Shown here: piece by piece, positions 6,606 through 63,495 of the stretch | Layout: every line of letters begins with the position of its first letter | How positions within the stretch are numbered: the first letter of the stretch is position 1 | DNA from: an uncultured Candidatus Saccharibacteria bacterium | GTDB lineage: Bacteria > Patescibacteriota > Minisyncoccia > UBA6257 > 1-14-0-10-40-38 | DNA: 64,000 bases | Reading direction: 5' to 3' | Assembly: GCA_964543265.1 (NCBI GenBank) | Contig: CAZIWN010000001.1 | Location: 232,977-296,976, forward strand | The notes under the pieces: model-generated | What the model was told of the DNA's origin: nothing | Seen by the model: the letters and a program-made list of their open reading frames with translations, nothing else | Databases searched by the model: none | Program-made: the position numbers and the translations under genes

Positions 6606-6609
6606 ATCC

Positions 6610-6645: not shown

Positions 6646-6672
6646 GATCGCTATTAAAATTGAAAAGCTTTT

Positions 6673-15126: not shown

Positions 15127-15188
15127 ATAATACCAGAAATAATAAAATTTGTAAATAAATTACAAATCTTTCGATTATAAAAGATCAG

Positions 15189-15266
15189 CTACAAGGCGCG
15201 AGTGAGTACCGACTGAGATGTATTGATATAAATACTTCGAAGGAGGAGTGGAGTGAGCAACGCCGT
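15189..15266 (+). repeat. intergenic structured repeat, copy 2 (long subfamily with central palindrome)
   Basis: tacAAGGCGCGAGTGAGTACCGACTGAGATGTATTGATATAAATACTTCGAAGGAGGAG...AACGCCGTA. Flanked by inverted repeat cgattataaaagatcagc / gatgaattttataattg. Confidence 0.75.
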
Positions 15267-15323
15267 AGATGAATTTTATAATTGAAAGTATAAAAAAAAT
15301 GAGACCGATTGGTCTCATTTTTT

Positions 15324-18290: not shown

Positions 18291-18408
18291 AAAGTAAAAT
18301 TATAACAGAACCAATAAAAACAATGTATTCAAACCTCTTTAATTTAAATTCTTATATTCAACTAAAAATCGCTAGTGCTAGATAGATATAATTTTCAAAT
18401 TTTATAAA

Positions 18409-18473
18409 TACAAGGCGTTTCGACGAAGTTGTATCAGAGCCATGCGGATACTACGAGAAGAAACAACGAAGTA
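18409..18473 (+). repeat. intergenic structured repeat, copy 3 (short subfamily)
   Basis: tacAAGGCGTTTCGACGAAGTTGTATCAGAGCCATGCGGATACTACGAGAAGAAACAACGAAGTA. Confidence 0.8.
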
Positions 18474-18492
18474 TTTTTCAAAAATCAAAACA

Positions 18493-19872: not shown

Positions 19873-19975
19873 ATTTTTTAATTTTTAAAATTTTATAAAC
19901 AAATTAAGCGATTTACAAAGAATAACTCAACTTTTTCAAAAAGTCCAGCCTATTTACAACAATCACTCACAACCA

Positions 19976-20004
19976 TTGACAATCTAATATTTTTCTGCTA
20001 GCAT
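19976..20004 (+). promoter_or_regulatory. sigma70-like promoter TTGACA-N17-TAGCAT for the GC-rich ORF
   Basis: TTGACA at 19976-19981 and TAGCAT at 19999-20004. SD aaggggaaaaga lies before the ATG at 20057. Confidence 0.45.
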
Positions 20005-20056
20005 ATAGCACAGTACCAGTTAAGAAGGGGAAAACCAAAGGCATAAGGGGAAAAGA

Positions 20057-20491
20057 ATGGACAGCGCAACCGCACCTCTTTCGACGACCCGTTTCGATCG
20101 GACCGGCTTCCAGTTCGACGTGAATTCCGAGATGCAAGAAAGCGTCTTCGACCTCGTCGAAGGCGCCCTGAATCGTGACGGCGAAGTGCGGGCAGAAGGA
20201 ATGCCCGACGAGATCGCCACGATCTCGGAAGCGCACATCTTCGCGGGCGAAGAAGGTCGAGTTCCGGCCACGCTCGAAGAAGCGATGAGCTTCGTCGAGC
20301 GCAACACGACAATCGCAGGTCACTGCGTGGTCGTAGCAACCGGAACCCAGACCTTCCACGGCGGAGAGTTTTTCGTCTTCGCGATTCGCAAGCACGAACG
20401 CGCAGACAAGACCGGCTTCGTCGTGACGACGATCCCGCTCACGAGCACGTGGGCGCGCCACTACAAGGTGGCGCACCTCTCAGCCACCTGA
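20057..20491 (+). CDS. hypothetical acidic 144-aa protein in a GC-rich (~60% GC) islet
   Basis: Only this frame and strand has a promoter, SD and downstream terminator. The three overlapping minus-strand ORFs are high-GC artefacts. Confidence 0.5.
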   Translation: MDSATAPLSTTRFDRTGFQFDVNSEMQESVFDLVEGALNRDGEVRAEGMPDEIATISEAHIFAGEEGRVPATLEEAMSFVERNTTIAGHCVVVATGTQTFHGGEFFVFAIRKHERADKTGFVVTTIPLTSTWARHYKVAHLSAT

Positions 20492-20504
20492 CCTGACCCC
20501 CCAA

Positions 20505-20566
20505 GCCCCGACACTAGAGCCTCTCGCGCACCGCGCGGAGCTCTAGCTGTCGGGGCTTCTTTTTTT
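20505..20566 (+). terminator. long GC-rich compound hairpin plus T-run after the GC-islet ORF
   Basis: gccccgacactagagcctctcgcgcaccgcgcggagctctagctgtcggggc then ttcttttttt. Confidence 0.7.
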
Positions 20567-20655
20567 ACAAAAAAACTTTGTATTTTTCCACTGACTAAAA
20601 TAGAATAAGAGTATTAATCTTAGAAAAATACCAAAATATTAATATTTTTAACAAA

Positions 20656-20718
20656 GACAAGGCGTTTTTGCGAAGCTGTATCAAGCAATGCGGATACAGC
20701 GAGTAAAAAGAACGCAGT
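20656..20718 (+). repeat. intergenic structured repeat, copy 4 (short subfamily), immediately upstream of dnaE
   Basis: gacAAGGCGTTTTTGCGAAGCTGTATCAAGCAATGCGGATACAGCGAGTAAAAAGAACGCAGTA. Its internal ATG is in frame with dnaE and creates a spurious N-terminal extension in the ORF track. Confidence 0.75.
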
Positions 20719-20747
20719 ATTTGTTAGTAAAGATTAATATTAAACCA

Positions 20748-31279: not shown

Positions 31280-31407
31280 GTTTTTATTGTTTATACATAA
31301 TACATCGAACAAATTTAAAAATCAAACGCCAAAACAAAAAACCAACAATATTAAGATTTTTCATAAATACAGCCTAATTTTTCAATCTTGAAATATTAAA
31401 TAGTTAT

Positions 31408-31488
31408 ATGCAAGGCTTGGCCGAGAAGCGAACCGAGATGTACTAAATATTAGTACTTCGAGGGAGCATCGGAGGCCGTAACGAAGCA
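31408..31488 (+). repeat. intergenic structured repeat, copy 5 (long subfamily, central palindrome gtactaaatattagtac)
   Basis: atgCAAGGCTTGGCCGAGAAGCGAACCGAGATGTACTAAATATTAGTACTTCGAGGGAGCATCGGAGGCCGTAACGAAGCA. Flanks aaatagttat / gatagctattt are inverted. Confidence 0.8.
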
Positions 31489-31512
31489 GATAGCTATTTA
31501 AAATTTCAAAAA

Positions 31513-32166
31513 CTAAAGCTTTTGGACTTGCAAACTGTCTAACTCTACGGAAGTCTCTCTGCCGAATATAGTAACCAATACCTTTATCTTGCCTTTTTCA
31601 GCGTCAATTTCAGAAATCTTAGCATCATAATCCTTAAAAGGACCATCGGTAATCTTAATCATATCACCGACTTTCATATCAATATTAAACTTCATCTCCT
31701 TACCCTCCATCTTACCCATCAATTCCTCTATTTCTTTTCTTGAAAGTGGGCTTGGCATAGTTGATTCAGCACCAACGAACCCTGTAACGCGAGGAGTGTT
31801 TCTAACCACATACCAAGAATCATCAGTCATAATCATATCTACCAAAACATATCCGTGATAAATTTTTTCGTCAGCAACCTTTCTCTTTCCGTTCTTAATC
31901 TTAACTTTTTTCTCTTTTGGAACTAAAACATTAAAAATCTTATCTTCCATTCCCAAAGTTTCAACTCTTTGTTTTAAATACCTAACAACGGCATCTTCAT
32001 AGCCAGAATAGGTATGCACGGCATACCAATTTCTTTCTGAACTATTCTTTTTTCCAACAACATCACTCTCCCTCGCAGGATCAAGTAAATTACCTATTTT
32101 CTCAACTTCCTTATTTCCAGATTCTTCCGTAGGCAAATTTGCTCCAACGTTTAATTCGTCTGCCAT
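31513..32166 (-). CDS. nusG: transcription termination/antitermination factor NusG (about 40-aa acidic N-terminal extension)
   Basis: NGN domain (WYAVHTYSGYE) plus KOW (FKVGDMIKITDGPF). Lies between secE and rplK. Confidence 0.85.
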   Translation of the reverse strand: MADELNVGANLPTEESGNKEVEKIGNLLDPARESDVVGKKNSSERNWYAVHTYSGYEDAVVRYLKQRVETLGMEDKIFNVLVPKEKKVKIKNGKRKVADEKIYHGYVLVDMIMTDDSWYVVRNTPRVTGFVGAESTMPSPLSRKEIEELMGKMEGKEMKFNIDMKVGDMIKITDGPFKDYDAKISEIDAEKGKIKVLVTIFGRETSVELDSLQVQKL

Positions 32167-32173
32167 AAAATTT

Positions 32174-32353
32174 TTAAATTATTGTATTTAAAAGATACCC
32201 GAAAACAAAGTCCATTGCTCCCAAGAAAAAAGCTAAGAAAATAGAAAGTCCGATAACGATCAAGGTAAGCTTTCTGGTTTCTGCAAATGTTGGCCAGTTT
32301 ATTCGCCTAAATTCTTGATGCGCGTCTGCGAAAAACAATTTAATTCTATTCAT
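32174..32353 (-). CDS. secE: preprotein translocase subunit SecE (59 aa; below the ORF-track cutoff)
   Basis: Hand translation gives MNRIKLFFADAHQEFRRINWPTFAETRKLTLIVIGLSIFLAFFLGAMDFVFGYLLNTII. Single TM. Conserved secE-nusG order. Confidence 0.7.
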   Translation of the reverse strand: MNRIKLFFADAHQEFRRINWPTFAETRKLTLIVIGLSIFLAFFLGAMDFVFGYLLNTII

Positions 32354-32500
32354 GGAAATATTATATGATATTACGGCTTAAAACGGCAAATGTCAACCGA
32401 GTAGTAGAAATCCGACTATGGATTTTGTCGCCTTGCGATCAGTCAGATTTTCGCTACCTGGTCAACCTCCCCAGAGATTGTTTCGCGATGATTAATTAAG

Positions 32501-32566
32501 TACAAGGAGCAACGACGAAGCTGTATTTGAGCCATGCGGATACTGCAAGGAGTTGGCGACGTAGTA
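32501..32566 (+). repeat. intergenic structured repeat, copy 6 (short subfamily)
   Basis: tacAAGGAGCAACGACGAAGCTGTATTTGAGCCATGCGGATACTGCAAGGAGTTGGCGACGTAGTA. Flanks attaattaag / aattaattaat are inverted. Confidence 0.8.
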
Positions 32567-32590
32567 ATTAATTAATAAGCGCGAAACACC

Positions 32591-34648
32591 CTATCCGCTG
32601 ATATCGAGATTTTTAACTAGAAGAGCATTAGCCTGTATAAACATTTTCCTAGGCTGAACCTCCTCGCCCATTAAGACATCAAATAATTTATCGGCTGCTT
32701 CAGCATCTTCAACGGCAACCTGGAATAACAATCTATTTGCCGGATTCATTGTCGTCTCCCAAAGCTGATCTGGATTCATCTCTCCTAAACCTTTATATCT
32801 CTGTATACTTATTCCCTTAGTATTACTATCATCAAAAACCTCTTCCACTTGGTCTTTTCCTTCTTTAACATTTTTCGCCTTTGCTTTTTGAGCCTTAATA
32901 TCCTGAAGTTCTTTTACGGTTTTATCTTTTTCTTTATCAGAATAAACATACCTCACCTCCTTTCCAGATTGAACTCTATAAAGTGGTGGTTGGGCAATAT
33001 AAAGATATCCAGCCTCTACAATTGGTTGGAAATATCTATAGAAAAGAGTAAGTAGTAAAGTTCTAATATGAGCTCCGTCAACATCTGCATCTGTCATTAA
33101 AACGATTTTATGATATCTGATTTTTGTAATATCAAACGTGTCAGCTATAGCTGTTCCAATTGCAACAACTAAAGATTTAATCTCTTTATTAAGTAACATC
33201 TTGTCTATTCTAGACTTTTCCACATTTAAAATTTTTCCTCTTAAGGGAAGAATGGCTTGAGTTCTTCTGTCTCTTCCAGATTTTGCAGATCCGCCTGCGC
33301 TATCTCCTTCAACTATAAACAGTTCCGATTCTTCTGGTTTTCTAGAGCTACAATCGGCAAGTTTTCCAGGCAAGGTCAAACCCTCCAAGGCACCCTTTCT
33401 CAAAACCATATCCTTCGCAGCTTTGGCGGCTTTTCTAGCTTTTAAAGCCAAAATACATTTTTCAATAATAGCCTTTCCGTCTTGAGTATTTCTCAATAAG
33501 AAATCTTTCAGAGCTTCGCCAACCACTGCTTCAACCGCAGTCCTCGCCTCAACGCTTCCAAGCTTGGCTTTTGTCTGTCCCTCAAATTGAGGTTCAGGAA
33601 TTTTTACCGAAACAATTCCTATAATTCCCTCTCTAACGTCATCTCCAGAAAAAGCATCTTCATTAGCTTTTAAATATCCTCCATCGCGAGCAAAATCATT
33701 TAATCCCCTAGTTAAAGCCGATCTAAAACCAGTTATGTGAGTTCCTCCATCTGGAGTGTGAATATTATTAGCGAAACTTAATTCTTTTATTTCAAATTCA
33801 TCACCGTAAGTAAAAGCTGCTTCTACTTCTAATTTTTCATAGTCTTTCTTTACATAAAAATTAGACCCTAAAATAGGTTTTCTGGAAGATGCTAAATGAT
33901 TTAGAAAAGAGTTCAATCCACCATCAAAGCAAAATCCAAAATAAGAAATATTTTTACTATCCCTAGCATCAACAACCTCCATTCTGATTCCAGCAGTCAA
34001 AAATGCCTGTTGCCTTAAACGATCTAAAATCTTTTTTAAATCAAAATTGGTATCTGGAAAAATTTCTGGATCTGGCTGGAACATTATCTTGGTTCCAGTT
34101 TTTTCAGATTTTCCAATTTTCTTAACCGGCCCCTGAACTTTTCCTTTTTTATATTCTTGAACATGAACTCCCCCATCTCTTTGAATTTCCGCCTTCATCC
34201 AAGTCGAAAGAGCGCAAACCACAGACGATCCCACTCCATGAAGACCTCCGGAAACCTTATAAGAATCTCCTCCGAATTTTCCTCCAGCGTGAAGCGTGGT
34301 TAAAACTGTTTCAAGTGTAGATTTTTTTGTTTGCGGATGTATTTCAACCGGAATTCCTCTTCCATCGTCAGTTACGGCTACAATATTATCCTCCAACAAC
34401 TCAACGCGGATATTCTTTGCATATCCGGCCATAGCTTCGTCGATTGAGTTGTCTACTATTTCCCAAATTAAGTGGTGCAATCCTTCTGGTCCAGTTGTTC
34501 CAATATACATTCCAGGACGCTTTCTAACAGGATCCAAACCCTCTAATACGAAAATATCCTTCGCTCCATACGACGCCGGTTTTTTATCTTCTTTTTTCGA
34601 TTCCTTTTTATCTTCTTTTTTAACCTCTTCTTGATCGTTTTTTGCCAT
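32591..34648 (-). CDS. gyrB: DNA gyrase subunit B
   Basis: GHKL ATPase (N..D..G motifs), Toprim (EGDSAGG, PLRGKILNVEK), C-terminal tail. Confidence 0.95.
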   Translation of the reverse strand: MAKNDQEEVKKEDKKESKKEDKKPASYGAKDIFVLEGLDPVRKRPGMYIGTTGPEGLHHLIWEIVDNSIDEAMAGYAKNIRVELLEDNIVAVTDDGRGIPVEIHPQTKKSTLETVLTTLHAGGKFGGDSYKVSGGLHGVGSSVVCALSTWMKAEIQRDGGVHVQEYKKGKVQGPVKKIGKSEKTGTKIMFQPDPEIFPDTNFDLKKILDRLRQQAFLTAGIRMEVVDARDSKNISYFGFCFDGGLNSFLNHLASSRKPILGSNFYVKKDYEKLEVEAAFTYGDEFEIKELSFANNIHTPDGGTHITGFRSALTRGLNDFARDGGYLKANEDAFSGDDVREGIIGIVSVKIPEPQFEGQTKAKLGSVEARTAVEAVVGEALKDFLLRNTQDGKAIIEKCILALKARKAAKAAKDMVLRKGALEGLTLPGKLADCSSRKPEESELFIVEGDSAGGSAKSGRDRRTQAILPLRGKILNVEKSRIDKMLLNKEIKSLVVAIGTAIADTFDITKIRYHKIVLMTDADVDGAHIRTLLLTLFYRYFQPIVEAGYLYIAQPPLYRVQSGKEVRYVYSDKEKDKTVKELQDIKAQKAKAKNVKEGKDQVEEVFDDSNTKGISIQRYKGLGEMNPDQLWETTMNPANRLLFQVAVEDAEAADKLFDVLMGEEVQPRKMFIQANALLVKNLDISG

Positions 34649-34824
34649 ATATTATTAAATAAAATAAGCTCTTAATAAGAGTTTTTGAACTACTTAATTA
34701 TATCAAAAAACTGGCCACAAAACAAGCAATTTTTACAAAAGAAAACCACCTACATTACTGTAAGTGGTCGAGGTTGAAACGCTATTTTCAAAAAGTGTCT
34801 ACAAATATCATCACCAAGCCCCTA

Positions 34825-35427
34825 TTATTTCCGTCTAATGAGAGCATAACGGCGGTCGTTCCATTCATCATCCAACCACAAACATCCCCAGAACCACCTG
34901 TAACCGCTCCAAAATAAATGACGAATACATATACCTCCAGCATCATCACGATATCTTGTTCCCCAGAAAAAGATCCATCCGATCCTCTTCCAATCATCGG
35001 GAATGAGCTCTGGGTAGGTAATTAAGTAATCAAGAACATTGGCGTTCAAAACCGGCTCTTTCTCAAGCTCTTTAAGGAGCTTATGGCCTTTAATAACCCT
35101 TCCATTTTGTTGGTTCGGCGAAAGATGCAACACTACAGCCGACAGGTTCCAGTTCAGAACTCCATCTCTTATATGATTTTCCACCTTAAGTCCATCTGGG
35201 ACTAACGGCTTGGCGTCGCAATCGATCTCCCGATTCCGATTATCCGACCCCAAATCAAGTAAATGCCGAAATGCATCTCGATCGACACCATCAACATTTC
35301 CATCTAGTAAATCTGACAATAAACCAGATTCAAGTAGATTCTGTAGGCGTTCTGGAGAAATACGTTTTTCCAGAACCATCTCTAAGATCTTCAAGCCTTG
35401 TGGCAGGGTTGCCAATTTCATTGACAA
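34825..35427 (-). CDS. hypothetical 200-aa protein with Trp-rich C-terminus in a ~45% GC islet
   Basis: ORF with SD AAGGA. Composition atypical for this genome. No family recognised. Confidence 0.3.
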   Translation of the reverse strand: MSMKLATLPQGLKILEMVLEKRISPERLQNLLESGLLSDLLDGNVDGVDRDAFRHLLDLGSDNRNREIDCDAKPLVPDGLKVENHIRDGVLNWNLSAVVLHLSPNQQNGRVIKGHKLLKELEKEPVLNANVLDYLITYPELIPDDWKRIGWIFFWGTRYRDDAGGICIRHLFWSGYRWFWGCLWLDDEWNDRRYALIRRK

Positions 35428-35721
35428 GTCCTTTTAGCTAAGGCGTCGCCGTAATCACTCCAATGCGGAGCAACTTTAGCGGGCCGATTGTGTTGCTTGG
35501 TCATAGCTTAAAAAGCTCATATTTTGTTATTTTTTTACATTAAATATTTTACTCTTTACAAAACACAAGCCCTTAAAGCTATGACCACTTTTATTACCAC
35601 TTTTTAATTAAATTGTAATGTGCTAATTAAATTTATATCACATTAATCCTTAAATGGTCAATTACTAATACACATTACTAAATATATTAGGTAATTATTT
35701 TTTAAATTCAAAAACGGCTAG

Positions 35722-35799
35722 ATGCAAGGCTTGGGCGAGAAGCGATTGAGGTGTATTAATTTAATACTCCGAAAGAGCATCGAAGACCATAACGAAGCA
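35722..35799 (+). repeat. intergenic structured repeat, copy 7 (long subfamily)
   Basis: atgCAAGGCTTGGGCGAGAAGCGATTGAGGTGTATTAATTTAATACTCCGAAAGAGCATCGAAGACCATAACGAAGCA. 24-bp inverted flanks tttaaattcaaaaacggctagatg / cagatggctgtttttcaatttaaa. Confidence 0.8.
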
Positions 35800-35822
35800 G
35801 ATGGCTGTTTTTCAATTTAAAA

Positions 35823-41604: not shown

Positions 41605-41669
41605 TCAAATAATACCAAAAAAACCAGACTTAAACCAAAAAAAACTCATCTCTTTTTTAGATAAATAAG

Positions 41670-41736
41670 TACAAGAAGCGACGACGAAGCTGTATATAAG
41701 CGAAAGCGAATACTGCGAGGAGGAGACGACGAAGTA
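41670..41736 (+). repeat. intergenic structured repeat, copy 8 (short subfamily)
   Basis: tacAAGAAGCGACGACGAAGCTGTATATAAGCGAAAGCGAATACTGCGAGGAGGAGACGACGAAGTA. Perfect ~21-bp inverted flanks tctcttttttagataaataag / attatttatctaaaaagagat. Confidence 0.85.
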
Positions 41737-41745
41737 ATTATTTAT

Positions 41746-42207
41746 CTAAAAAGAGATACTAAAGGCTCTAGCGGCCGACCCAGCTCTTCCGACAGATTTA
41801 ATACAAGTAAGAACATCTGGAGTCGTTCCCTCATCATGAACCGCACCAAAAGGACAGCCAGCATCTTTAGAAATTAAAAGCTCATAAGTCTGATTGTCGG
41901 TTAATTTACCAGTAAAAGAATTATCATATTGATTATTTCCAGACTCCAAACAAACATCAGTAGAGGCGATAAGCGCCTGATCTGGTGCATTTAAATTATT
42001 ACACCTAAAAACCTTAAAAAGACCTCTCTCCAACGCTGCGTCTGCGGAATATATTGCCTTAACGGAATCAACGGCTATATTCGTTTGTCTAGTTTGATTT
42101 AAGGTTAAAACACCAGCAACAGTAGTTGCGACCAAAAATACAGACGCCAAAAACAAAACAGTAACCAACATAACTTGCCCAGAACTATTTTTATTAAAAA
42201 AGTACAT
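41746..42207 (-). CDS. pilus-assembly / minor pilin-like protein (PilX-like N-terminal helix)
   Basis: N-terminal hydrophobic helix MLVTVLFLASVFLVATTVAGVL. Position in the pilin cluster. Confidence 0.4.
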   Translation of the reverse strand: MYFFNKNSSGQVMLVTVLFLASVFLVATTVAGVLTLNQTRQTNIAVDSVKAIYSADAALERGLFKVFRCNNLNAPDQALIASTDVCLESGNNQYDNSFTGKLTDNQTYELLISKDAGCPFGAVHDEGTTPDVLTCIKSVGRAGSAARAFSISF

Positions 42208-44085: not shown

Positions 44086-45045
44086 CTAATTAATCGGAAA
44101 AAGGCTAAAATAAAAATTTAAAATATCAACACCAAAAAACATTACAACCACAGTGGAAAGAACGATAAACGGACCAAACGGCACCAACGTTTTCATCCCT
44201 GCCCTTTTCCCCAACATTAAAATTATACTCCAAAAAGAACCTATTATAAACGAACCCAAAAGAGCCAAAATAATATCTGGCCAACCCAATAAAACACCCA
44301 AAGCTATCGCTAACTTAACATCGCCAAAGCCCATTCCCCTGCCTCTGCTTAAAAAATATATTCCTCCAAATAAAACCAAACCAAAACCCAACCCCAATAC
44401 ACTAGAAATAAAAATTGAATCTCTAAATCCGAACAATGAAGCATAATGACCTAAAAACGAAAATCTATAAAAATCAAATAAAGAATATTTATATTTAATA
44501 AAAGCTAAAATAATCCCAAGGATTAAAATTAATAAATTCGAACTATCGGGTATAATCCGCAGTCTCAAATCAACTAAAGAAATAAAAACCAGAGTTAGTA
44601 AAAATAATATATAAATTCCGCATAAAATATAAAAAACAACAGGCATAGACCCGATAACAAACTTAAATTCATAAACCCTATTAACTAATTTAGGAACAAA
44701 AACAAAGATTAAACCAGAGATAATCTCGATTATTGGATACTGAAAAGATATTTTTTGCTTACAATTACCACACCTCCCCAAAAGGAATAAGAAACTTAAA
44801 ATGGGAATCAAGTTTATCCAAGAAATTTCCTTACCACAACTCATACAATTGCTTCTTCCAGAAATCTTCTTTAAATCAAAAACTTTTCCATCTTCAGAAT
44901 ATCTTAAAGACAAAACATTTAAAAAACTTCCAAACAATGTTCCAAAAACAAAAAGTATAAAATTTATCATAAAAATATTATTTATTTGTTTTGAATTATA
45001 AATGTCAGCTACAAGGCGCGAGTGAACAAAGACTAATATTATCAC
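44086..45045 (-). CDS. pilD: prepilin peptidase (A24 family)
   Basis: N-terminal CxxC..CGNC zinc motif. 6-8 TM helices. Aspartyl peptidase A24 region. Confidence 0.8.
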   Translation of the reverse strand: MIILVFVHSRLVADIYNSKQINNIFMINFILFVFGTLFGSFLNVLSLRYSEDGKVFDLKKISGRSNCMSCGKEISWINLIPILSFLFLLGRCGNCKQKISFQYPIIEIISGLIFVFVPKLVNRVYEFKFVIGSMPVVFYILCGIYILFLLTLVFISLVDLRLRIIPDSSNLLILILGIILAFIKYKYSLFDFYRFSFLGHYASLFGFRDSIFISSVLGLGFGLVLFGGIYFLSRGRGMGFGDVKLAIALGVLLGWPDIILALLGSFIIGSFWSIILMLGKRAGMKTLVPFGPFIVLSTVVVMFFGVDILNFYFSLFPIN

Positions 45046-45058
45046 ACATTAATTAATC
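45010..45058 (+). repeat. intergenic structured repeat, copy 9a (degenerate 5' part of long subfamily)
   Basis: agctacaaggcgcgagtga is identical to the 19-mer in copy 2. The rest has decayed. Confidence 0.55.
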
Positions 45059-45073
45059 TTTATTTGAGATGAG

Positions 45074-45138
45074 TACAAGACGCGACGACGAAAGTGTACA
45101 TAAGCTAAGCGAGTACTCTGAGGAGGAGCAACGCAGTA
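45074..45138 (+). repeat. intergenic structured repeat, copy 9b (short subfamily), tandem to 9a
   Basis: tacAAGACGCGACGACGAAAGTGTACATAAGCTAAGCGAGTACTCTGAGGAGGAGCAACGCAGTA. 12-bp inverted flanks tatttgagatga / tcatctcaaata. Confidence 0.8.
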
Positions 45139-45155
45139 ATCATCTCAAATATAAA

Positions 45156-45749
45156 TTAATTCCCGTAGAAGCATTCTTTGTTACCCATACAATAATAATC
45201 CCCATCGCAATCTATCCCTCCAGGATAAAGATTCTTACAAGACTCAGAAGAGCAAGAAACCGGTGACAATTTAGAAATTATATCTGCATTATCGATATCA
45301 TCACTTAAAAATTTACTATCAGCAGAAATCCTAGCCCTTAAAATATAGCACTGACCTCTCGGTATAGACGTTCCAGAACCAAGCTGCACAAAATAACTAT
45401 AAGTTTCACCCAAGGAAACATCTGGATCGTTTTGTAGCGGCTCCAATCCTATATCTGCTCTTTTTAATATATCAGACAACTCTTGCCAACTTAAAGGATC
45501 TTCACCTGGGTTATTAGGAGTAACAGCTCCACGACACTCAGAAGACACTATACTGCCAGGATAAAAACCGCATTTCAATTTAAAAAGCTCTAAAGATTGA
45601 GCCGCACTCTTCAAATCTGCAACTCTTTGATCATCTTTTGTTTTTTTTCTCACATCCAATAAACTAGGCAAAACAAGGGAAATAATAACGCCGATAACGC
45701 CGATAACTATTAATATTTCAACCAATGTAAAACCCTTTTTATTGAACAC
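45156..45749 (-). CDS. type IV pilin
   Basis: KKGFTLVEILIVIGVIGVIISL prepilin motif. Cys pair near the C-terminus. Confidence 0.7.
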   Translation of the reverse strand: MFNKKGFTLVEILIVIGVIGVIISLVLPSLLDVRKKTKDDQRVADLKSAAQSLELFKLKCGFYPGSIVSSECRGAVTPNNPGEDPLSWQELSDILKRADIGLEPLQNDPDVSLGETYSYFVQLGSGTSIPRGQCYILRARISADSKFLSDDIDNADIISKLSPVSCSSESCKNLYPGGIDCDGDYYCMGNKECFYGN

Positions 45750-46263
45750 CGACGCAATAAATATTATCTACACCTCCATTAATACCACAACTAAAACTAG
45801 TGAAATAACTTGTGAAATTAATATCCCCGTCATCTATATCAGACTTTAAAGCAGAATTATCGGTTTCTAAATGAGCGGTTAAAATATATGCTTGATTAGT
45901 TGTTCCTGGATGATATTCATAATTAGGCACAGAACCAACTTCAAATGGGATTCTAACATTTAACGAGCTCTTTAAAACAGACGACAATAGCGTTCCATCC
46001 GTCCAAGCTCCATCAGAAAAATTACCAGGAGTACATGAAGCACCAGCTCCAGCCGCTCCTCCAGGATAATATCCACATTTATTGTAATAAAGCTCTAGCG
46101 CACTCTGAACCTGCTTCAAATCAGCAATTCTTCTAGCATCACGAGCAGATTGCCTAGCTCCATTTAAACTCACTAAAAGCGCCGAAGCTAAAATACCGAT
46201 AATAGCTATTACTATTAATAATTCCACCAGAGTAAAACCTTTCCTATTTTTAATTTTATTCAT
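45739..46263 (-). CDS. pilA: type IV pilin (candidate major pilin)
   Basis: RKGFTLVELLIVIAIIGILASALL. C-terminal Cys pair. Confidence 0.7.
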   Translation of the reverse strand: MNKIKNRKGFTLVELLIVIAIIGILASALLVSLNGARQSARDARRIADLKQVQSALELYYNKCGYYPGGAAGAGASCTPGNFSDGAWTDGTLLSSVLKSSLNVRIPFEVGSVPNYEYHPGTTNQAYILTAHLETDNSALKSDIDDGDINFTSYFTSFSCGINGGVDNIYCVGVQ

Positions 46264-46303
46264 ATATTTTTAATTCTTCTAATTTGGATTTATAAAGAGC
46301 AGA

Positions 46304-46367
46304 TACGAGACGTTTCGAGGAAGTTGCATCAAGCTATGCGGATACTACGACGAGAAACAACGAAGTA
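46304..46367 (+). repeat. intergenic structured repeat, copy 10 (short subfamily)
   Basis: tacGAGACGTTTCGAGGAAGTTGCATCAAGCTATGCGGATACTACGACGAGAAACAACGAAGTA. Confidence 0.8.
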
Positions 46368-46388
46368 TATGCCTTTATAAATTCAAAT

Positions 46389-47600
46389 TTATCTAATGAC
46401 TTGTATTAAATTATATATCGGAAGTAGTAGCGCCGCAAACATAAACCCAACCATTAAACCCAAAAACACCATTATAACTGGCTGTATTAATTCAGAGATA
46501 TTAGAAACTAAATTATCAACCTCTCTAGAATAGAAGGAATTTACCTTCTGAAACATTTCTTCCAATTTTCCAGTCTGCTCACCCACAGATATCATCTGCG
46601 TCACAATTGGCGGAAAATATTTAGCATAAAGCTGAAATGCTTGGCTTAATTGTTCACCCCTCCTAAGTCTTTCAACAATTTCGTGTATTACCTCTTCGTA
46701 CAACTCACTGCCAACAGTGTGACCAGCAATCTCCAAAGATTGAGTTATAGGAATTCCTCCCTTAATTAAAACGCTAGCCACTTCAGAAAATCTTGCAATG
46801 TATAATTTTCTGAAAAGATTACCAAGTCCAGGAATTGCCAAAACAATTTGATTTAAAATAGCTTTTCCCTCCCTGCTCCTGAAATAATCCAAAACAATAA
46901 TTAAAAATATTATTATAAAAACAATAATTCCAGCCCACCATTCATTAATAAAGTCTCCTAAACTTAGAAATATTCTAGTTATTAAAGGAAGCTCAAAATT
47001 AGCTTCAGTAAAAATAGGTTTTATCTGCGGAAAAACTAAACCAACCAAAACTCCTCCAACTATAAGCGATAAGCTGATTACAAAAACAGGATAAATCATA
47101 GCTGTCCTCACCTTCGAAGATAAAAGAAGCTCTTTTTCTAAATAATTAGCTAAATACTCCATCACCTCCTCTAGCCTTCCGGTAACTTCAGCAGATTGGA
47201 CCAAATTTACATAGAAATCAAAAAATATATTTCCATGTTTTTGTAAGGATTGAGAGAAAGAAAGTCCAGAACTTATATCCTGAGAAATTTCATATAAAGC
47301 CTCCTTTAAAACAGAATTAGTTGTTTGATAATAAAGAGAATTTAAAGAGTCTGTTAGTGATATTTTCGCGCCCAACATCGCGGCAAATTGTCTAGTAAAT
47401 ATCGCTAAATCTTTAGATTTAACCCTTTTCCAAAAAAGAAAAATTTCGTTATACCATTTAGGCTCCGAATATTTATCTATGCTTAAAATAAAAAGATCAT
47501 GAGAAATTAAGACACTAGTCGCAGTATCTTTATCCACAGCCTCAACATTACCCACCTGAAGCTCTCCAGTTTTTGTTCTTGCGCTGTATCTAAATTTCAT
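46389..47600 (-). CDS. pilC: type IV pilus assembly platform protein PilC (GspF family)
   Basis: Duplicated GspF domains. 403 aa. Three TM segments. Confidence 0.85.
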   Translation of the reverse strand: MKFRYSARTKTGELQVGNVEAVDKDTATSVLISHDLFILSIDKYSEPKWYNEIFLFWKRVKSKDLAIFTRQFAAMLGAKISLTDSLNSLYYQTTNSVLKEALYEISQDISSGLSFSQSLQKHGNIFFDFYVNLVQSAEVTGRLEEVMEYLANYLEKELLLSSKVRTAMIYPVFVISLSLIVGGVLVGLVFPQIKPIFTEANFELPLITRIFLSLGDFINEWWAGIIVFIIIFLIIVLDYFRSREGKAILNQIVLAIPGLGNLFRKLYIARFSEVASVLIKGGIPITQSLEIAGHTVGSELYEEVIHEIVERLRRGEQLSQAFQLYAKYFPPIVTQMISVGEQTGKLEEMFQKVNSFYSREVDNLVSNISELIQPVIMVFLGLMVGFMFAALLLPIYNLIQVIR

Positions 47601-48694: not shown

Positions 48695-48790
48695 ATTTGT
48701 TTATTTATAAATTATAACTTATTTAGTAATCCCCTGCGAAGTGTAAAAATATATAAAATCTATTTAAGAAAATTATAAAAATTAAGAAAG

Positions 48791-48855
48791 TGCGCAGAGC
48801 GACGACGAAGTTGCATTAAAGCTGTGCGGATACTGCGAGGAGAAACGACAAAGCA
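48791..48855 (+). repeat. intergenic structured repeat, copy 11 (short subfamily)
   Basis: tgcGCAGAGCGACGACGAAGTTGCATTAAAGCTGTGCGGATACTGCGAGGAGAAACGACAAAGCA. Confidence 0.8.
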
Positions 48856-48875
48856 ATTTCTTCATTTTTATAATT

Positions 48876-52017: not shown

Positions 52018-52061
52018 TTTTTATACAAATTTCTCTACAAAATCTTGAAAGATAAAGTAAT

Positions 52062-52127
52062 TACAAGGAGCTCTGACGAAGCCGTATTAAAGCCAAGCAC
52101 ATACGGCAAGAAAGAATCGATGCAGTA
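52062..52127 (+). repeat. intergenic structured repeat, copy 12 (short subfamily, perfect internal stem gccgtat/atacggc)
   Basis: tacAAGGAGCTCTGACGAAGCCGTATTAAAGCCAAGCACATACGGCAAGAAAGAATCGATGCAGTA. Confidence 0.8.
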
Positions 52128-52148
52128 ATTGGCTAGTTTGCAAATATT

Positions 52149-53979: not shown

Positions 53980-54018
53980 AAACCACATAGGATTTATAAT
54001 TTAAATAAATTTAAAAAA

Positions 54019-54094
54019 TACGAGGAGTTTCGACGAAGGTGTATGTAAGCCACGCGAATACTCCGAGGAGAAAACGACAAAGTATTTTTTAAAT
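54019..54094 (+). repeat. intergenic structured repeat, copy 13 (short subfamily)
   Basis: tacGAGGAGTTTCGACGAAGGTGTATGTAAGCCACGCGAATACTCCGAGGAGAAAACGACAAAGTA. Perfect 16-bp inverted flanks aaataaatttaaaaaa / ttttttaaatttattt. Confidence 0.85.
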
Positions 54095-54103
54095 TTATTT
54101 AAA

Positions 54104-55300
54104 TTAATACCCTTCTTGTTTTTCTGCGTCTATAACATATTGCCCAACATCCACAACTTGCGCCTTAGTTACTTTTTTCAAAGATTTTGAAGAAATTCCA
54201 TTACCATCAACATCAACAGTAATCAATCCAGAAACTCCAGACCAATTAGTTAAAGACTTCATCCATTCAGAAATATTTTTTATATTAACTTCTCCCCCAT
54301 GATAATTTGCGGAAAAAGCATCCTTAATCACAAAAAGAGCATCATAAGCATAAAAAGCCATTCCTATCGGATATTCTCCATAAACAGCCTTATATTCTTC
54401 TCTAAAATTTTGAGCTGCTAAATTATTCTTCCAATCTATATCAGTTGATATAGCTAAAGATCCCTCAAACGTTTTTGGATTCTTTGAGATGTTTTCGCTA
54501 TCAAAAATAGAAATTGGCGAAGCAAAATATGCATTAATTCCTTTTTCTCTTATTTTCTTTAAAATTTCAAAGCTATTATCTTTTGAATCCACGGCGACAT
54601 AAACAGCTTCCGGTTTTATAGTCTTAATTTCATCTATAATTTCCTGCGTGTCTTTTGAAAAATCAACCGCAGAATCTAAAACAACTTCACCGTCCGATTC
54701 TGAAAAATATTTTCTAAAACTATCAGATGATGCTTCTCCAAATTTAGTTTTATCGTGAAGTATCGCAGATTTACTAACTTTAAGATCGTTTATAAAATAA
54801 TTTGCCAAAAAAGAACCTTCAAAAAAGTCTGGCGAAGTTACAGAATAAGCAGACTCACCAGCCCCAGATACTCCATAATCAAGACCAGAATAAGAAACCA
54901 TAATTCCGCCATAATTTTTTACAACTCCAGAGATAGAAGCCACCTCTTCCTTGCACGATCCGGCAATTATAATTTTTATTCCCAAATCTATTAATTTTTT
55001 AGCAGACTCTCCGCTTTTTTTAGAATCACAACCTCCATCCTCAAAAACTACGCTTATCTTCCTTCCATCCACGCCTCCGACATCATTAATTTTTTTCTGC
55101 CCAAGCTCCAATGCCCCCTTAACAGCCAAAACTTCAACAGAGTCATTATCCATAGGCAAAATAGCCCCAATCTTTATTTCAGACTGAGAATCGGAAGAAT
55201 AATTAGGAAATATAGCAAAACCACCAATTGCAAAAACGGCTATCAAAAAAACAAAAGTTATAATCCTTATCATTAGCTTAAATAGTATATAATTAAACAA
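54104..55300 (-). CDS. ABC transporter substrate-binding protein, type-1 PBP (Leu/Ile/Val-binding family)
   Basis: Signal/TM anchor. IKIGAILPM..G..A..GA.LA periplasmic binding fold. Confidence 0.65.
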   Translation of the reverse strand: MFNYILFKLMIRIITFVFLIAVFAIGGFAIFPNYSSDSQSEIKIGAILPMDNDSVEVLAVKGALELGQKKINDVGGVDGRKISVVFEDGGCDSKKSGESAKKLIDLGIKIIIAGSCKEEVASISGVVKNYGGIMVSYSGLDYGVSGAGESAYSVTSPDFFEGSFLANYFINDLKVSKSAILHDKTKFGEASSDSFRKYFSESDGEVVLDSAVDFSKDTQEIIDEIKTIKPEAVYVAVDSKDNSFEILKKIREKGINAYFASPISIFDSENISKNPKTFEGSLAISTDIDWKNNLAAQNFREEYKAVYGEYPIGMAFYAYDALFVIKDAFSANYHGGEVNIKNISEWMKSLTNWSGVSGLITVDVDGNGISSKSLKKVTKAQVVDVGQYVIDAEKQEGY

Positions 55301-60050: not shown

Positions 60051-61145
60051 CTATATTCCAGATTTTATTCGATTATCTTGCCTACATAACATCTGACAAT
60101 TTTCCGTGACAGTTTTTCCTCCTTCGCGCCAAGGCTTAATATGATCGGCTTCCATATCTTCTATTTCAAAAGTTTTCTTACATTTTTTACAAATACCTTT
60201 TTGACGCTCATAAGTCTCCCTTTTCATTTTTTCAGTGAAAGAGCGGATGTTGAGATATTTTTCTTGTCGAGTCAAAATATAAGGATAAATCCCAGACTTT
60301 TTTGTGACATCTTCGTCTTGCATTAACTCGGTTATTTCTTTTTCTAATTTTTTAGAATCTAACTTTTTATCTTTAAATTCGTTATACAACTCACCCCATT
60401 CTACGTGAGTCATTTCGCGGCGATAATTTGGAAATATTTTTTGTACCCAAGCAATCACATCTTGAAAATATTTCCACAGCTTATCGGCATCTTTATCTTT
60501 CTGATGCTTACCCATATAATCTTCAATTTTGTCATTACTGATCCAGCGCAATACTGTCTCCAAATATTCTTGACGATTTAGCTGCCCACTCACGTAATCT
60601 TTGGCCAGTAGATATGCCGGCGCGTTACTCTTACTGAAATACCTCTTGGCATCGGTTACCCACGGCCCGGAATAAATGGCATTTAAAAGTTCCTGCGGAG
60701 TCAGTTTCTCGCCGGCCGTGTTAATAACCTTAAACCAAGCAAGTTTTTCATCATCCGTGCCTTCGCAAAAATATACCATAAGCGGATAGTCTCGGATTTT
60801 CTTTTTCTCTTCCTCGGTCAAATTCTCAAAATACATCTGATATCCACGATTCACGACGTTAAAATCTCCCGCCAAAAAGTTACAGATACTAACGGTGCGC
60901 TGTTGACCATCAAGAATTTCGAAACTTCCGTCTATATTCTTCACCCAATACATTGCATTCAGCGGGAATCCACCCATCACTGAATTAACGACAGCAATCT
61001 GCTGTTCGGGTTTGTAAATAAACTCGCGCTGATATTTCGGGCGAATATTTAATTTTCCACCATAGCCCACCACGCCCTCCTCTTCACTGTTTTTATATCC
61101 GTCAACTATTTCATGTATTGGAATTTGATGTAATTCTATTTTCAT
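60051..61145 (-). CDS. DUF262 (ParB/GmrS-like NTPase) + C-terminal HNH nuclease fusion; GmrSD-like type IV restriction candidate
   Basis: N-terminal DUF262-type motifs (ILDGQQR). C-terminal HNH CKKCKK...ADHIKPW..GG..ENCQMLC..N. Confidence 0.65.
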   Translation of the reverse strand: MKIELHQIPIHEIVDGYKNSEEEGVVGYGGKLNIRPKYQREFIYKPEQQIAVVNSVMGGFPLNAMYWVKNIDGSFEILDGQQRTVSICNFLAGDFNVVNRGYQMYFENLTEEEKKKIRDYPLMVYFCEGTDDEKLAWFKVINTAGEKLTPQELLNAIYSGPWVTDAKRYFSKSNAPAYLLAKDYVSGQLNRQEYLETVLRWISNDKIEDYMGKHQKDKDADKLWKYFQDVIAWVQKIFPNYRREMTHVEWGELYNEFKDKKLDSKKLEKEITELMQDEDVTKKSGIYPYILTRQEKYLNIRSFTEKMKRETYERQKGICKKCKKTFEIEDMEADHIKPWREGGKTVTENCQMLCRQDNRIKSGI

Positions 61146-61156
61146 ATTATTTTTGA

Positions 61157-61876
61157 TTAATTGTGTTGGACTTTTAGCTTATGCGTCTCATAGCTCAAGT
61201 GATTATCTCTAATATTAGATGCGATTTCTATATATTTTTTATGTTCCTTAATAAAATCTTCAAACAAAACTGGCAATATAAAAGAGTGGTCGTTCCCTCG
61301 ATGAATTTCATTTCTTTTACAAGAATTACAATTAAATGTATCCTTATTAATTTTATTGAACATATTTTCCCTTAATAAGTAAAAAAGTGTAGGCGTATTC
61401 CAAGTTCTTGTATTACAAAAAACACAATTATGAAAAGTCACTAAATATTCATAGCTTTTATTAAGGTCTGGCAATACTACTGCGAGCATGGCATTTGTTC
61501 TACTTGTTTTACCTCCTCTTCTTTTGTCGTTTCTTAGAGAATAAGATATTTCGTTGGGTATCCACTGCTCTTTTTCTATTTTGGTTCTGTCAAACATATT
61601 GGGGGATACTAAAACTATAGTCACAGAACTATCAAAAATTTTACCTTTTAATTTTGTATCAATTGTATCATTTGAAAATTCAGCCAGCGATTCATTATCT
61701 TTTTCACCCTTAAAAATATTATCGCCATTTTTTGTAAGTAATGTTTCTAAAAAATTAACATAATGTCTCGCGGTTATTTTATTGTCGGTATCTTTACCTA
61801 TTTCATAACTAAAAAAATCACTATAGTTATATACATTACTGTCTTTGTGTTTGTAGCTAATAAAAACTTTGGCCAT
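61157..61876 (-). CDS. TIR-domain protein (ThsB/DUF1863-like) with C-terminal CxxC..CxxC segment
   Basis: MAKVFISYKHKD...IVLVSPNMF...EQWIPNEI matches the bacterial TIR pattern. The C-terminus has CVFCN...CNSC. Confidence 0.6.
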   Translation of the reverse strand: MAKVFISYKHKDSNVYNYSDFFSYEIGKDTDNKITARHYVNFLETLLTKNGDNIFKGEKDNESLAEFSNDTIDTKLKGKIFDSSVTIVLVSPNMFDRTKIEKEQWIPNEISYSLRNDKRRGGKTSRTNAMLAVVLPDLNKSYEYLVTFHNCVFCNTRTWNTPTLFYLLRENMFNKINKDTFNCNSCKRNEIHRGNDHSFILPVLFEDFIKEHKKYIEIASNIRDNHLSYETHKLKVQHN

Positions 61877-61880
61877 ACGT

Positions 61881-62318
61881 TTAAGCGATTAATTTTATTA
61901 TTATAACCATTGCTAAGCAAAGAATGCCGTAAAATCCCAGAAGTATTGGGGAGAAAATGGAGGCGAAAAGTGTTTTATCTGCATGAGTTTTAAATTCGCC
62001 AATATTCATAGAGAAATCAATTTCCTCCTCAGGGATTTTTCTTACTTTATCATGCAAACCACGAAATTTACGCTCCAACGATAGAAAGTAACCATCGTAA
62101 ATCCAGAATAAAACTAATAAAATAAAAAACAAAACTGGTGCCCACTTCGCAACATTTAATAAGTCAGAAGTCGATACAGCGAAAAGACCGGCAAGAAGTG
62201 TTATTGACCAACCTCTTAGATAAAACAGGTTTCCACCCATACGATCAATGACCCCCTGGATCATTTGTAAATGAGCAATTTTATTTGGACAATGTTTGTA
62301 TTCTTTTAGATTTTCCAT
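61881..62318 (-). CDS. small 3-TM membrane protein (candidate effector)
   Basis: 145 aa with three predicted TM helices. 4-nt gap to the TIR gene and 1-nt gap to the MTase gene. Confidence 0.45.
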   Translation of the reverse strand: MENLKEYKHCPNKIAHLQMIQGVIDRMGGNLFYLRGWSITLLAGLFAVSTSDLLNVAKWAPVLFFILLVLFWIYDGYFLSLERKFRGLHDKVRKIPEEEIDFSMNIGEFKTHADKTLFASIFSPILLGFYGILCLAMVIIIKLIA

Positions 62319-62319
62319 A

Positions 62320-63390
62320 TTATTTTTTCCTTTTAATTAAAATTCGTGCGTACAATTCTTTATTTGTCCCAGGTAAAATACCACGATGTTTATGCAGAGG
62401 ATCTTTTCTTAATCTTTCTACTTCTGGTGTCTTGTCACCACTATGAGTCTGACCTATAACCTCAAATTGATCGGGATTATATTTATCAATAAAAGTAAGA
62501 GGAACACCCATGACGCCACTATAATCCATAGGAATTTCAGAAACTTTTGATACTTCAATAGCATCATAATTGTCATACTTTGGATATTCTTCAGGTTTAT
62601 AGTTTTTATAAAAAGTCATTTTCTCGTGGCGTTTTAAGGTATCAAGATTCGTGAACCACAAAATACGCCCCATACTAAAATATTTTATACCGTCTACAAT
62701 TTTTTTTCTTGATTCCGTCTCTATGTCATAATCTTTGGGAACCTGAAACCATTTTGTGCCACCATTATCATAACCAAGCCACAATTTATTTTCCTTGATA
62801 AGTTTGAAAATTTCTTTATACGTTATAGCGTTCTGATCACCGAGAATCAAAAACTTTTTCCTATATTCAACAAGTTGTGCCACGTATTCTCGAAATAAAG
62901 AAAACGGCGGATTGGTGACTACAATGTCTGCTTCTTTGAGCAATTCAACACACTCATCGCTTCTAAAATCGCCACCGCCTTTTAAGGGAGCGGATACATT
63001 GGCGTCGTGCTTAAGTAGATACTCTACATCAGCCAAGTCTATAGAACCGTCAGTGTTGCTATCCGGAACTTTATTAATTTCAATCTTTATTGGCTGCTTA
63101 CCTTTAGACCCAGCTATTTTAGGTAGTGACAATTGTCCCCCAATAATTGGCGAACCGCTGCAACTGGTAGTAATCAGTTTCTTGAGTTTTAATTCGTTAA
63201 ATTTAGAAGCAAAATATTTGAAAAAATTGCTTTCAAACGGATCATCGCAGTTACAATACACTACCTTATCATTGAACTGATCTTTATAGTGCTTAAGCTC
63301 TTTTTCGATATCAACAAGCTGGGTATAAAACTCATCTTTTTTTGCCTTGCTTGCCCTATGTAAATTCTTATTTAAAGATTTGGTCGCCAT
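62320..63390 (-). CDS. N6-adenine DNA methyltransferase, EcoRI-methylase-like family
   Basis: DEFYTQ...KVVYCNCDDPFESNFFKYF...DIVVTNPPFSLFREY...KYDNYDAI pattern. Start trimmed to MATKSL because the ORF-track N-terminus is a read-through of tRNA-Ser. Confidence 0.7.
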   Translation of the reverse strand: MATKSLNKNLHRASKAKKDEFYTQLVDIEKELKHYKDQFNDKVVYCNCDDPFESNFFKYFASKFNELKLKKLITTSCSGSPIIGGQLSLPKIAGSKGKQPIKIEINKVPDSNTDGSIDLADVEYLLKHDANVSAPLKGGGDFRSDECVELLKEADIVVTNPPFSLFREYVAQLVEYRKKFLILGDQNAITYKEIFKLIKENKLWLGYDNGGTKWFQVPKDYDIETESRKKIVDGIKYFSMGRILWFTNLDTLKRHEKMTFYKNYKPEEYPKYDNYDAIEVSKVSEIPMDYSGVMGVPLTFIDKYNPDQFEVIGQTHSGDKTPEVERLRKDPLHKHRGILPGTNKELYARILIKRKK

Positions 63391-63408
63391 TGTTTCAATC
63401 AAAATTTG

Positions 63409-63495
63409 CGGTGAGGGCGAGATTCGAACTCGCGATGCCCTTTCGGACATAACAGTTTTCAAGACTGTCGCCTTAGACCACTCGGCCACCTCACC
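63409..63495 (-). tRNA. tRNA-Ser (anticodon TGA), long variable arm
   Basis: Reverse complement GGTGAGGTGGCCGAGTGGTCTAAGGCGACAGTCTTGAAAACTGT-variable arm-GCGAGTTCGAATCTCGCCCTCACCG. Confidence 0.85.

Follow-up and report, generated by a model that had tools for sequence, protein, structure and literature searches.

REP/BIME/REPIN repeats of proteobacteria, which go together with RAYT transposases, are abundant extragenic imperfect palindromes that lie mostly just downstream of genes, keep mismatches within their hairpins, have GTAG/CTAC-like ends, vary in copy number between relatives and include truncated copies. ERIC/IRU, BOX, RUP and Correia elements are imperfect palindromes of ~70-150 nt in transcribed intergenic regions; they form long RNA hairpins and can affect the ends or the stability of mRNAs, with some copies at orthologous sites and others lineage-specific. 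The mycobacterial TRIT motif consists of sequence-conserved stem-loops shortly after stop codons, many of them without a U-tract, and integron attC sites are structure-conserved hairpins of variable sequence and length, downstream of genes and in one orientation, whose unpaired bases define the active strand. These are the traits that recall a family of intergenic repeats identified here in a 64,000-nt stretch (the window) of contig CAZIWN010000001.1 (assembly GCA_964543265.1), from a Paceibacteria (Patescibacteria, or candidate phyla radiation, CPR) genome, two members of which stand side by side upstream of the prepilin peptidase gene pilD. With moderate confidence, we take the family to be a structured repeat of the REP/ERIC type that is specific to this lineage, multiplies by copying and probably has a function as a stem-loop at gene ends. 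The family is new and lineage-restricted, while the kind of element, a structured intergenic palindromic repeat, is already known.

A repeat family with conserved purine-purine loops

The family was defined by repeat finding, a hidden Markov model and two covariance models (CM R1 for the short form and CM R2 for the long form), all of which agreed. In the window it comprises nine short copies (74-94 bits), three long copies (92-114 bits), one 3′ half and one 5′ fragment (Table 1). All 14 copies and pieces are intergenic and on the plus strand; no member was found on the minus strand of the window, even with filters off. The resulting density of about one per 4.6 kb (14 per 64 kb) is one that we had not expected in the small, streamlined genomes of Patescibacteria/CPR, and it points to a copying mechanism, probably with a gene-end function, for which text searches of the literature returned no description in this group.

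The short and long forms are homologous, since the long-form model scores the short copies 24-36 bits, and the long form has extra G.A modules relative to the short one. The predicted fold is a rod in which covarying Watson-Crick steps of 1-5 bp alternate with conserved purine-purine (tandem G.A) loops, closed by an AT-rich outer stem that varies between copies. In the short form, CGACGAAG stands opposite CGAGGAG twice, pseudo-symmetrically, in the order C-G / G.A / A.G / C-G / G.A / A.G. The fold is borne out by covariation: 93% and 96% of cells were paired for the two forms, against 24-48% in slid controls, both sides had changed in 12 of 22 and 15 of 30 pairs, and none of 500 shuffles reached the observed covariation. 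The copies are 60-80% alike. Each of them is purine-rich on the plus strand (57-69%, G > C); over the whole window (~34% GC), C exceeds G there, and from 6.7 to 55 kb the genes are mostly encoded on the minus strand. The short copies mostly have TAC...GTA ends and two long copies TGC...GCA ends, while the copy at 15175 ends with CTAC...GTAG and the pilD fragment has CTAC. The outer inverted flanks differ between copies and are partly common only to those at 15175, 45007 (the pilD fragment) and 46295; the outer stem of the 32492 copy reaches GTTTCGCG...CGCGAAAC, and the flanks of the copy at 53997..54106 extend to the stop codon of the gene at 54104..55300.

No further member came from Rfam or from pattern scans of public collections. 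At the gathering threshold, Rfam detected only tRNAs in the whole window, and in scans of 44900-46450 and 31350-32620 with E-values up to 10 the elements matched nothing beyond noise (e.g. snoRNA and miRNA families). A strict core pattern had no match in genome contigs and none in metagenome contigs. A relaxed pattern had one viral and ten metagenome matches, among which a single one (L012) scored with the model (33.7 bits); it lies inside an ATPase coding region with its outer stems broken and was judged to be a chance match forced by the pattern. BLAST searches of the elements against phages and plasmids yielded no match, and a text search of the literature yielded nothing relevant on such repeats in CPR/Patescibacteria.

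Location at gene ends

Nine complete copies, including the one at 54010, lie directly behind a minus-strand gene, at 2-17 nt from the upstream stop codon. Where the next gene is annotated on the minus strand as well (seven of these copies), the gap to its start is larger every time (31-280 nt), and ~138 nt separate the 32492 copy from the start of secE (32353), which is not annotated. Promoter-like sites matching at 10 of 12 positions follow three copies, ahead of trmD, secE and pilT (the latter at 48740-48711, after the 48782 copy). Between 40 and 55 kb, a scan of either strand found no long-stem terminator-like site (at least 11 pairs), and the only large intergenic hairpins are the elements themselves. 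Coming after a stop codon and before the next promoter, the elements thus occupy the place expected of a terminator or 3′ stem-loop. For annotation they mark transcription-unit boundaries, and they explain differences in spacer length between close relatives.

According to the reading that we favour, the family would have spread by copy-and-paste, through a putative enzyme, and the copies that persisted would be transcribed at gene ends within mRNAs, as judged from their position. As 3′ stem-loops they could there terminate, insulate or stabilise the transcript, in the manner of REP, ERIC and similar repeats, and deletion or recombination at long palindromes would have produced broken pieces such as 44989-45033 as a by-product. 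Besides the pilD fragment, truncated pieces occur at window 6607-6648 and at 7532-7560 of L002, a contig of a relative described below, and the breakpoints lie at the apex in 6607 and inside the arms in 45007 and L002.

A specific role as an L1/L11 leader was considered for the copy between nusG and rplK and rejected: the purine strand runs antisense to rplK, and long-form copies are also present behind pheS and khpA.

Gain, loss and conservation in relatives

The closest relative that was read, the Baikal-deep-G188 metagenome-assembled genome (MAG; GCA_009694925.1), has 83% amino acid identity in pilD, 93% in gyrB and 92% in dnaE. Over ~30 kb of conserved synteny (contigs L002 and L021), it carries one orthologous short copy, between pilC and the pilin gene (L002 6223-6301), and one remnant. 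Its sites corresponding to the copies at 15175, 18400, 20647, 32492 and 48782 are short and empty, and two other spacers are occupied by an AT-rich palindromic repeat unrelated to the family. In the more distantly related ERZ27280317 (pilD 64% and dnaE 81% identical), a single long copy is present in ~44 kb, in the nusG/rplK spacer; it is the ortholog of window 31394-31500, with numerous compensatory changes. In two relatives that are more distant still (gyrB 73-74% identical), the nusG/rplK spacers, of 48 and 73 nt, contain no family member. A locus search of genome contigs based on PilC returned the Baikal contig only. Set against the 14 pieces of the window, these counts are those of a copied, proliferating family, as the initial annotation of this DNA had proposed when it spoke of repeated mobilisation.

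At 4-fold degenerate sites the window and the Baikal MAG differ by 44-53% (~48%), so that the differences in copy number reflect long evolutionary time and not recent bursts. The retained copies are constrained, because they are far more conserved than the 4-fold sites or than their own flank. That is, the nusG/rplK copy is 64% identical, compared with 39% for its flank, and contains compensatory pairs. The pilC/pilin spacer (window 46253-46399 and L002 6198-6343) is 94% identical throughout, beyond the element too, which suggests strong constraint on a region that controls the pilin gene; the element within it differs at ~9 of 72 positions (~12%), including a compensatory double change from TTTC/GAAA to TTCC/GGAA. 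These comparisons indicate that the shared copies are under purifying selection, and that the elements are probably functional as well as duplicative. The statement, made initially about the pilD copies, that their arrangement is hard to explain for a purely regulatory motif was therefore too strong, the orthologous copies being under clear purifying selection with compensatory changes.

The AT-rich repeat of the Baikal MAG forms a family of its own, AAAATCAAAAT(T/G)GCAA ... TTTACATTGTCATTTT, found at L002 480-596 and 8454-8569 and at L020 3407-3565 and absent from the window. It sits in some of the spacers that hold elements with G.A modules in the window, namely nusG/rplK and the spacer between pilM and the next gene.

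Two adjacent copies upstream of pilD

The spacer between pilD and the minus-strand pilin-like gene (45156..45749) is 185 nt long. It had been described as holding a degenerate long-form 5′ fragment directly before a complete short-form copy that is closed by its own 12-bp inverted flanks, and all of these parts were found again. The fragment shares the 19-mer AGCTACAAGGCGCGAGTGA with the long copy at 15175; this 19-mer has exactly two occurrences, at 15187 and 45007, and no match in 100 shuffles, and when read directly the identity first reported as a 19-mer extends to the 21-mer TCAGCTACAAGGCGCGAGTGA (15185-15205 = 45005-45025). Upstream of the 21-mer, some 16 nt of further likeness (TTTGAATTATAAATG and TTCGATTATAAAAGA) lead into the AT-rich outer stem. 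Alignment, which had been named as the test of this similarity, gave a local score of 78 for the fragment and the 15175 copy, against a shuffle maximum of 49. The long-form profile matches 45000-45031 at profile positions 6-37 only (E = 0.033), a 5′-arm profile matches the fragment with an E-value of 0.006, and profile searches found no long-form 3′ arm near the fragment or beyond the short copy. Because the match is limited to these profile positions and no 3′ arm lies nearby, the fragment is a genuine 5′ piece of a long-form element, ~40 nt long, whose similarity ends after ~45027-45033. The short copy is complete by contrast: model positions 1-81 are matched at 45065-45145 with 91.5 bits, its TAC...GTA core spans 45074-45138, and its flanks (45061-45072, TATTTGAGATGA; 45140-45151, TCATCTCAAATA) pair with each other over 12 bp in the predicted structure.

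Members of repeat families are a common cause of mis-assembly, and the pair could in principle stem from a repeat-induced mis-join or collapse. The Logan assembly of run SRR12487045, a separate assembly of a run that may be the MAG's own source, has an identical 206-nt spacer in a 4.4-kb contig, which argues against a mis-join. Moreover, copies that are 60-80% alike are too diverged to collapse, and the exact stretch is only 21 nt long. We therefore regard an artefact as very improbable, despite a low-coverage contig from the Hainich groundwater metagenome (L006; pilD 81% identical) that ends at the element boundary. In that contig, the sequence starts where the long-form fragment would end (1-38).

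The two copies differ in what they reveal of their history. In the Baikal MAG, a 28-nt remnant of the short copy upstream of pilD (L002; 23 of 28 positions identical, none of 1000 shuffles as good) lies at the same distance from the pilin stop codon as the short copy of the window. The short copy is thus older than the split from the Baikal lineage, since a remnant was left at the same position. At 21 of 21 positions the fragment is identical to the 15175 copy, whose site is empty in the Baikal MAG, and this suggests that the two arose from a common source not long ago; against that, the relative with the 81%-identical pilD keeps the TTTATAATT region adjoining the fragment.

Nesting or adjacent insertion had been proposed for this pair. 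For nesting, in which the short copy would have split a resident long-form copy, one can cite the long-form 5′ part directly upstream of the short copy and the short copy's arms (TACAAGACGCGA... and ...GAGCAACGCAGTA), which on direct reading, without a score, look closer to the 15175-type long form than to the remaining short copies. However, neither a long-form 3′ arm nor a matching outer-stem strand follows the short copy, the sole look-alike (CCGTAGA, 45164-45170) lies inside the coding sequence for the conserved pilin C-terminus ECFYGN and its stop codon in both genomes, and the short copy is old, while the identity of the fragment suggests a different and probably younger history. Nesting is thus improbable. 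The two copies are adjacent, one of them broken, so that only the second half of the proposal is retained, and the pair is an ordinary by-product of such a family that calls for no special structure.

A hairpin hotspot as the target of these insertions was not supported. The inverted flanks lie in the extra DNA of filled sites, and the empty Baikal sites inspected for hairpins (gyrB/secE, pilB/pilT, smc/rnc and upstream of dnaE) have no matching one. The flanks would instead travel with the element, because the fragment has the same outer-stem sequence as the 15175 copy.

A rather unlikely alternative is that TTTATAAT, the outer-stem sequence of the fragment, serves as the -10 box of a pilD promoter. 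The fragment would then have been kept, or would resemble an element only in part, for that reason, and the spacer would be a composite regulatory region rather than debris. Read on the gene strand, TTTATAATT precedes the pilD ATG by ~27 nt, the Hainich contig matches it at 26 of 32 nt (none of 1000 shuffles as good), and promoter-like sites follow elements elsewhere in the window. Yet the promoter scan found nothing above chance here, and convergence cannot account for the 21-nt GC-rich arm, which has no part in a promoter. The comparison of the region upstream of pilD in relatives, which had been suggested at the outset, recovered the short-copy remnant in the Baikal MAG, but the spacers there (44 nt) and in ERZ27280317 (20 nt) contain no TATAAT-like box.

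Between the two pieces, the segment 45023..45064 folds on the minus strand (-9.1 kcal/mol, z = -2.7) and not on the plus strand (-1.9 kcal/mol, z = +0.4). Possibly it represents the inner region of the truncated copy in a decayed state.

The active strand

Several observations weigh against a gene-end stem-loop that spreads by copying. None of the 50 window ORFs (open reading frames) scanned against Pfam matched a transposase (no Y1_Tnp), and no target-site duplication was seen. The use as RNA is read from the position of the copies, and the strand that folds best, the plus strand, is antisense to the neighbouring genes. Consensus energies on the plus and minus strands are -10.2 vs -5.8 kcal/mol for the short form and -25.3 vs -11.5 for the long form, and the plus strand is the more stable one in 11 of 13 copies. 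The loops, purine-purine on the plus strand, become pyrimidine-pyrimidine in the mRNA, an unusual composition for a stem-loop of that kind; the tally of wobbles on the plus strand, 13 G.U vs 7 A.C, is not decisive. A U-tract is missing in most copies, which are thus not classical intrinsic terminators: by eye, the flanks are U-rich at 54010, 48782, 35708 and 18400 and not at 45065, 46295 and 32492, and a terminator scan of the window picked up none of the elements. The 15175 copy is already behind a canonical terminator (15289-15328; the promoter-like site of trmD is at 15155-15127). Finally, the 20647 copy, the sole complete copy not behind a minus-strand gene, keeps the common chromosomal orientation although it precedes a plus-strand gene, which agrees better with a rule linked to replication or DNA than with one linked to genes.

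The choice between the RNA and DNA readings turns mainly on the active strand, and a replication-oriented DNA mechanism is a serious rival. In its specific form, to which we give a minor share of the probability, the element would be a single-stranded DNA (ssDNA) hairpin that a Y1/HUH-type enzyme, with its gene elsewhere in the genome, mobilises in trans, as in REP/RAYT or IS200/IS605 systems; the replication fork would set its orientation, a role as RNA would be secondary, and the pilD locus would represent two separate insertions, one of them broken later. The uniform orientation of all 14 pieces is in keeping with this, as it includes both the 20647 copy and the 6607 half copy, which sits behind a plus-strand gene, and the GC skew has one sign throughout the window. 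The (C)TAC...GTA(G) ends recall the REP tetranucleotide, and close relatives have very different copy numbers. Stable sheared G.A pairs form in both DNA and RNA. On the other hand, the absence of Y1_Tnp or any other transposase from the scanned ORFs bears on this mechanism as well, only one or two copies tell gene-linked from replication-linked orientation where ~70% of the genes are on the same strand, and the better-folding, purine-rich plus strand is by GC skew neither the lagging-strand template nor, consequently, the strand normally exposed in replication. The strong conservation of shared copies would moreover be needless for a purely selfish element.

About as doubtful is the possibility that the family goes beyond REP-like debris and represents a new class of structured nucleic acid within Patescibacteria, built of repeated C-G / G.A / A.G modules and maintained by purifying selection at orthologous positions, whose antisense purine-rich strand folds and is a recognition platform for a dedicated protein. 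The platform could be bound by an RNA- or ssDNA-binding protein, i.e. the copying enzyme or a gene-end processing or termination factor, and the truncated pilD arm could pair with the 3′ arm of the short copy as an alternative structure. The gene-end repeat spread by copying remains the interpretation that we favour. Whichever strand is active, stems that vary freely, purine-purine loops that are fixed and a single orientation make this family a clean system for the RNA-versus-DNA question, and its G.A-module architecture, single orientation and conservation in a CPR genome are worth following.

Features of the window

Coordinates of the elements and of the genes flanking the pilD spacer are compiled in Table 1.

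Table 1. Members of the repeat family in the window and features of the pilD region (window coordinates)
Feature	Coordinates	Strand	Evidence and remarks
pilD, prepilin peptidase	44086..44970	-	Pfam A24_N_bact 5.9e-26, Peptidase_A24 2.9e-12; identical protein on record; likely start ATG at 44970, vs GTG at 45045 in the mechanical ORF list
Truncated long-form 5′ part	44989..45033	+	Outer-stem 5′ strand 44989-45004, then 5′ arm with the 21-mer; closest relative is the 15175..15279 copy
AT-rich spacer between element pieces	45023..45064	-	13-bp hairpin on the minus (gene-sense) strand only
Complete short-form element	45061..45151	+	Core 45074-45138, 12-bp inverted flanks; CM R1 91.5 bits
Pilin-like gene	45156..45749	-	Pfam N_methyl 2.6e-06; stop codon 4 nt from the short-copy hairpin base
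Long-form copy, khpA / trmD	15175..15279	+	CM R2 91.9 bits; Baikal MAG spacer without copy
Long-form copy, nusG / rplK	31394..31500	+	CM R2 110 bits; ortholog L022 22028-22132, 112 bits
Long-form copy after pheS	35708..35811	+	CM R2 114.5 bits; at one end of a ~1.1-kb insertion
Short-form copy, rnc / smc	18400..18480	+	CM R1 92.7 bits; absent in Baikal MAG, 40-nt spacer
Short-form copy, 21 nt upstream of plus-strand dnaE	20647..20726	+	CM R1 80.7 bits; absent in Baikal MAG
Short-form copy, 17 nt past the gyrB stop codon	32492..32573	+	CM R1 92.3 bits; Baikal MAG without copy, 48-nt spacer
Short-form copy upstream of ligA, 2 nt past the stop of ORF 41746..42207	41661..41743	+	CM R1 89 bits
Short-form copy, pilC / pilin gene	46295..46374	+	CM R1 83.4 bits; ortholog L002 6223-6301, 63.6 bits
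Short-form copy, pilB / pilT	48782..48862	+	CM R1 83.2 bits; absent in Baikal MAG
Short-form copy after pilM	52053..52134	+	CM R1 74.2 bits; Baikal spacer has a different AT-rich palindromic repeat
Short-form copy	53997..54106	+	CM R1 94.3 bits, model match 54010-54091; 25-bp perfect inverted flanks
Short-form 3′ half, broken at the apical loop	6607..6648	+	nhmmer E = 3.6e-05, profile positions 35-77

Some of the elements have noteworthy neighbours. The half copy at 6607 adjoins a terminator hairpin and tRNA-Glu; this strong terminator-like hairpin (6573-6606, AAAAATCCCCG...CGGGGATTTTTT) abuts the broken end of the element, and hairpin elements may be replacing one another at gene ends. Near the 32492 copy, a ~70-nt hairpin-forming segment at 32392-32467 has GTAG...CTAC ends on the minus strand, lies within 7-bp direct repeats (GGTTGAC) and is missing from the gyrB/secE spacer of the Baikal MAG. 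It has the appearance of a small insertion in its own right, whose target duplication doubled the -35 box of the secE promoter.

The long copy after pheS marks one end of a ~1.1-kb insertion (34700-35811) between pheS and gyrB, deduced from comparison with L020 and L003. The insertion has its own terminator (34769-34744) and a W/R-rich ORF of 200 aa (34825..35427). This ORF was considered as a mobilising protein and set aside, as it has no Pfam or NCBIfam match and only a PHROG match with E = 0.06, to a family of unknown function. Upstream of the 20647 copy, a GC-rich island at 19967-20566 holds a 144-aa ORF (20057..20491, plus strand) without family match, followed by a strong terminator; it has a conserved counterpart at the corresponding site of the Baikal MAG (L021 7557..7988), so that it is not a recent import. 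A defence-like cluster occupies 60051-63489, with a GmrSD_N and HNH protein (60051..61145), an ORF with a faint ThsB_TIR match (61157..61876), a 145-aa ORF without assigned family and an EcoRI-methylase-family protein (62320..63489).

Comparison with known systems

The likenesses given at the beginning are accompanied by clear differences. REP sequences are 20-40 nt long, whereas the units described here measure from 65 nt (short core) to ~105 nt, occur singly and in one orientation instead of as inverted pairs, and have stems that vary around fixed purine-purine loops; no RAYT was seen in the 64 kb (among the 50 ORFs scanned), and the host is a CPR bacterium of ~34% GC. From ERIC/IRU, BOX, RUP and Correia elements the family differs in having no sequence similarity or Rfam match to them, a uniform orientation and a modular short/long architecture. 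The terminal inverted repeats, in contrast to those of Correia-type miniature inverted-repeat transposable elements (MITEs), are not conserved between copies, and comparisons of filled and empty sites revealed no direct repeat of the kind left by MITE target duplication, the junctions being blurred by near-saturated neutral divergence. Compared with TRIT, one copy (15175) stands behind a canonical terminator and another (20647) in front of a gene, and a terminator role would here be deduced from position. Finally, in contrast to attC sites, the elements have no R′′/R′ core sites (RYYYAAC/GTTRRRY) at their ends and no integrase was found in the window, and their neighbours are not cassettes but core housekeeping genes (gyrB, nusG, pheS, ligA, dnaE and the pilus operon) in conserved synteny.

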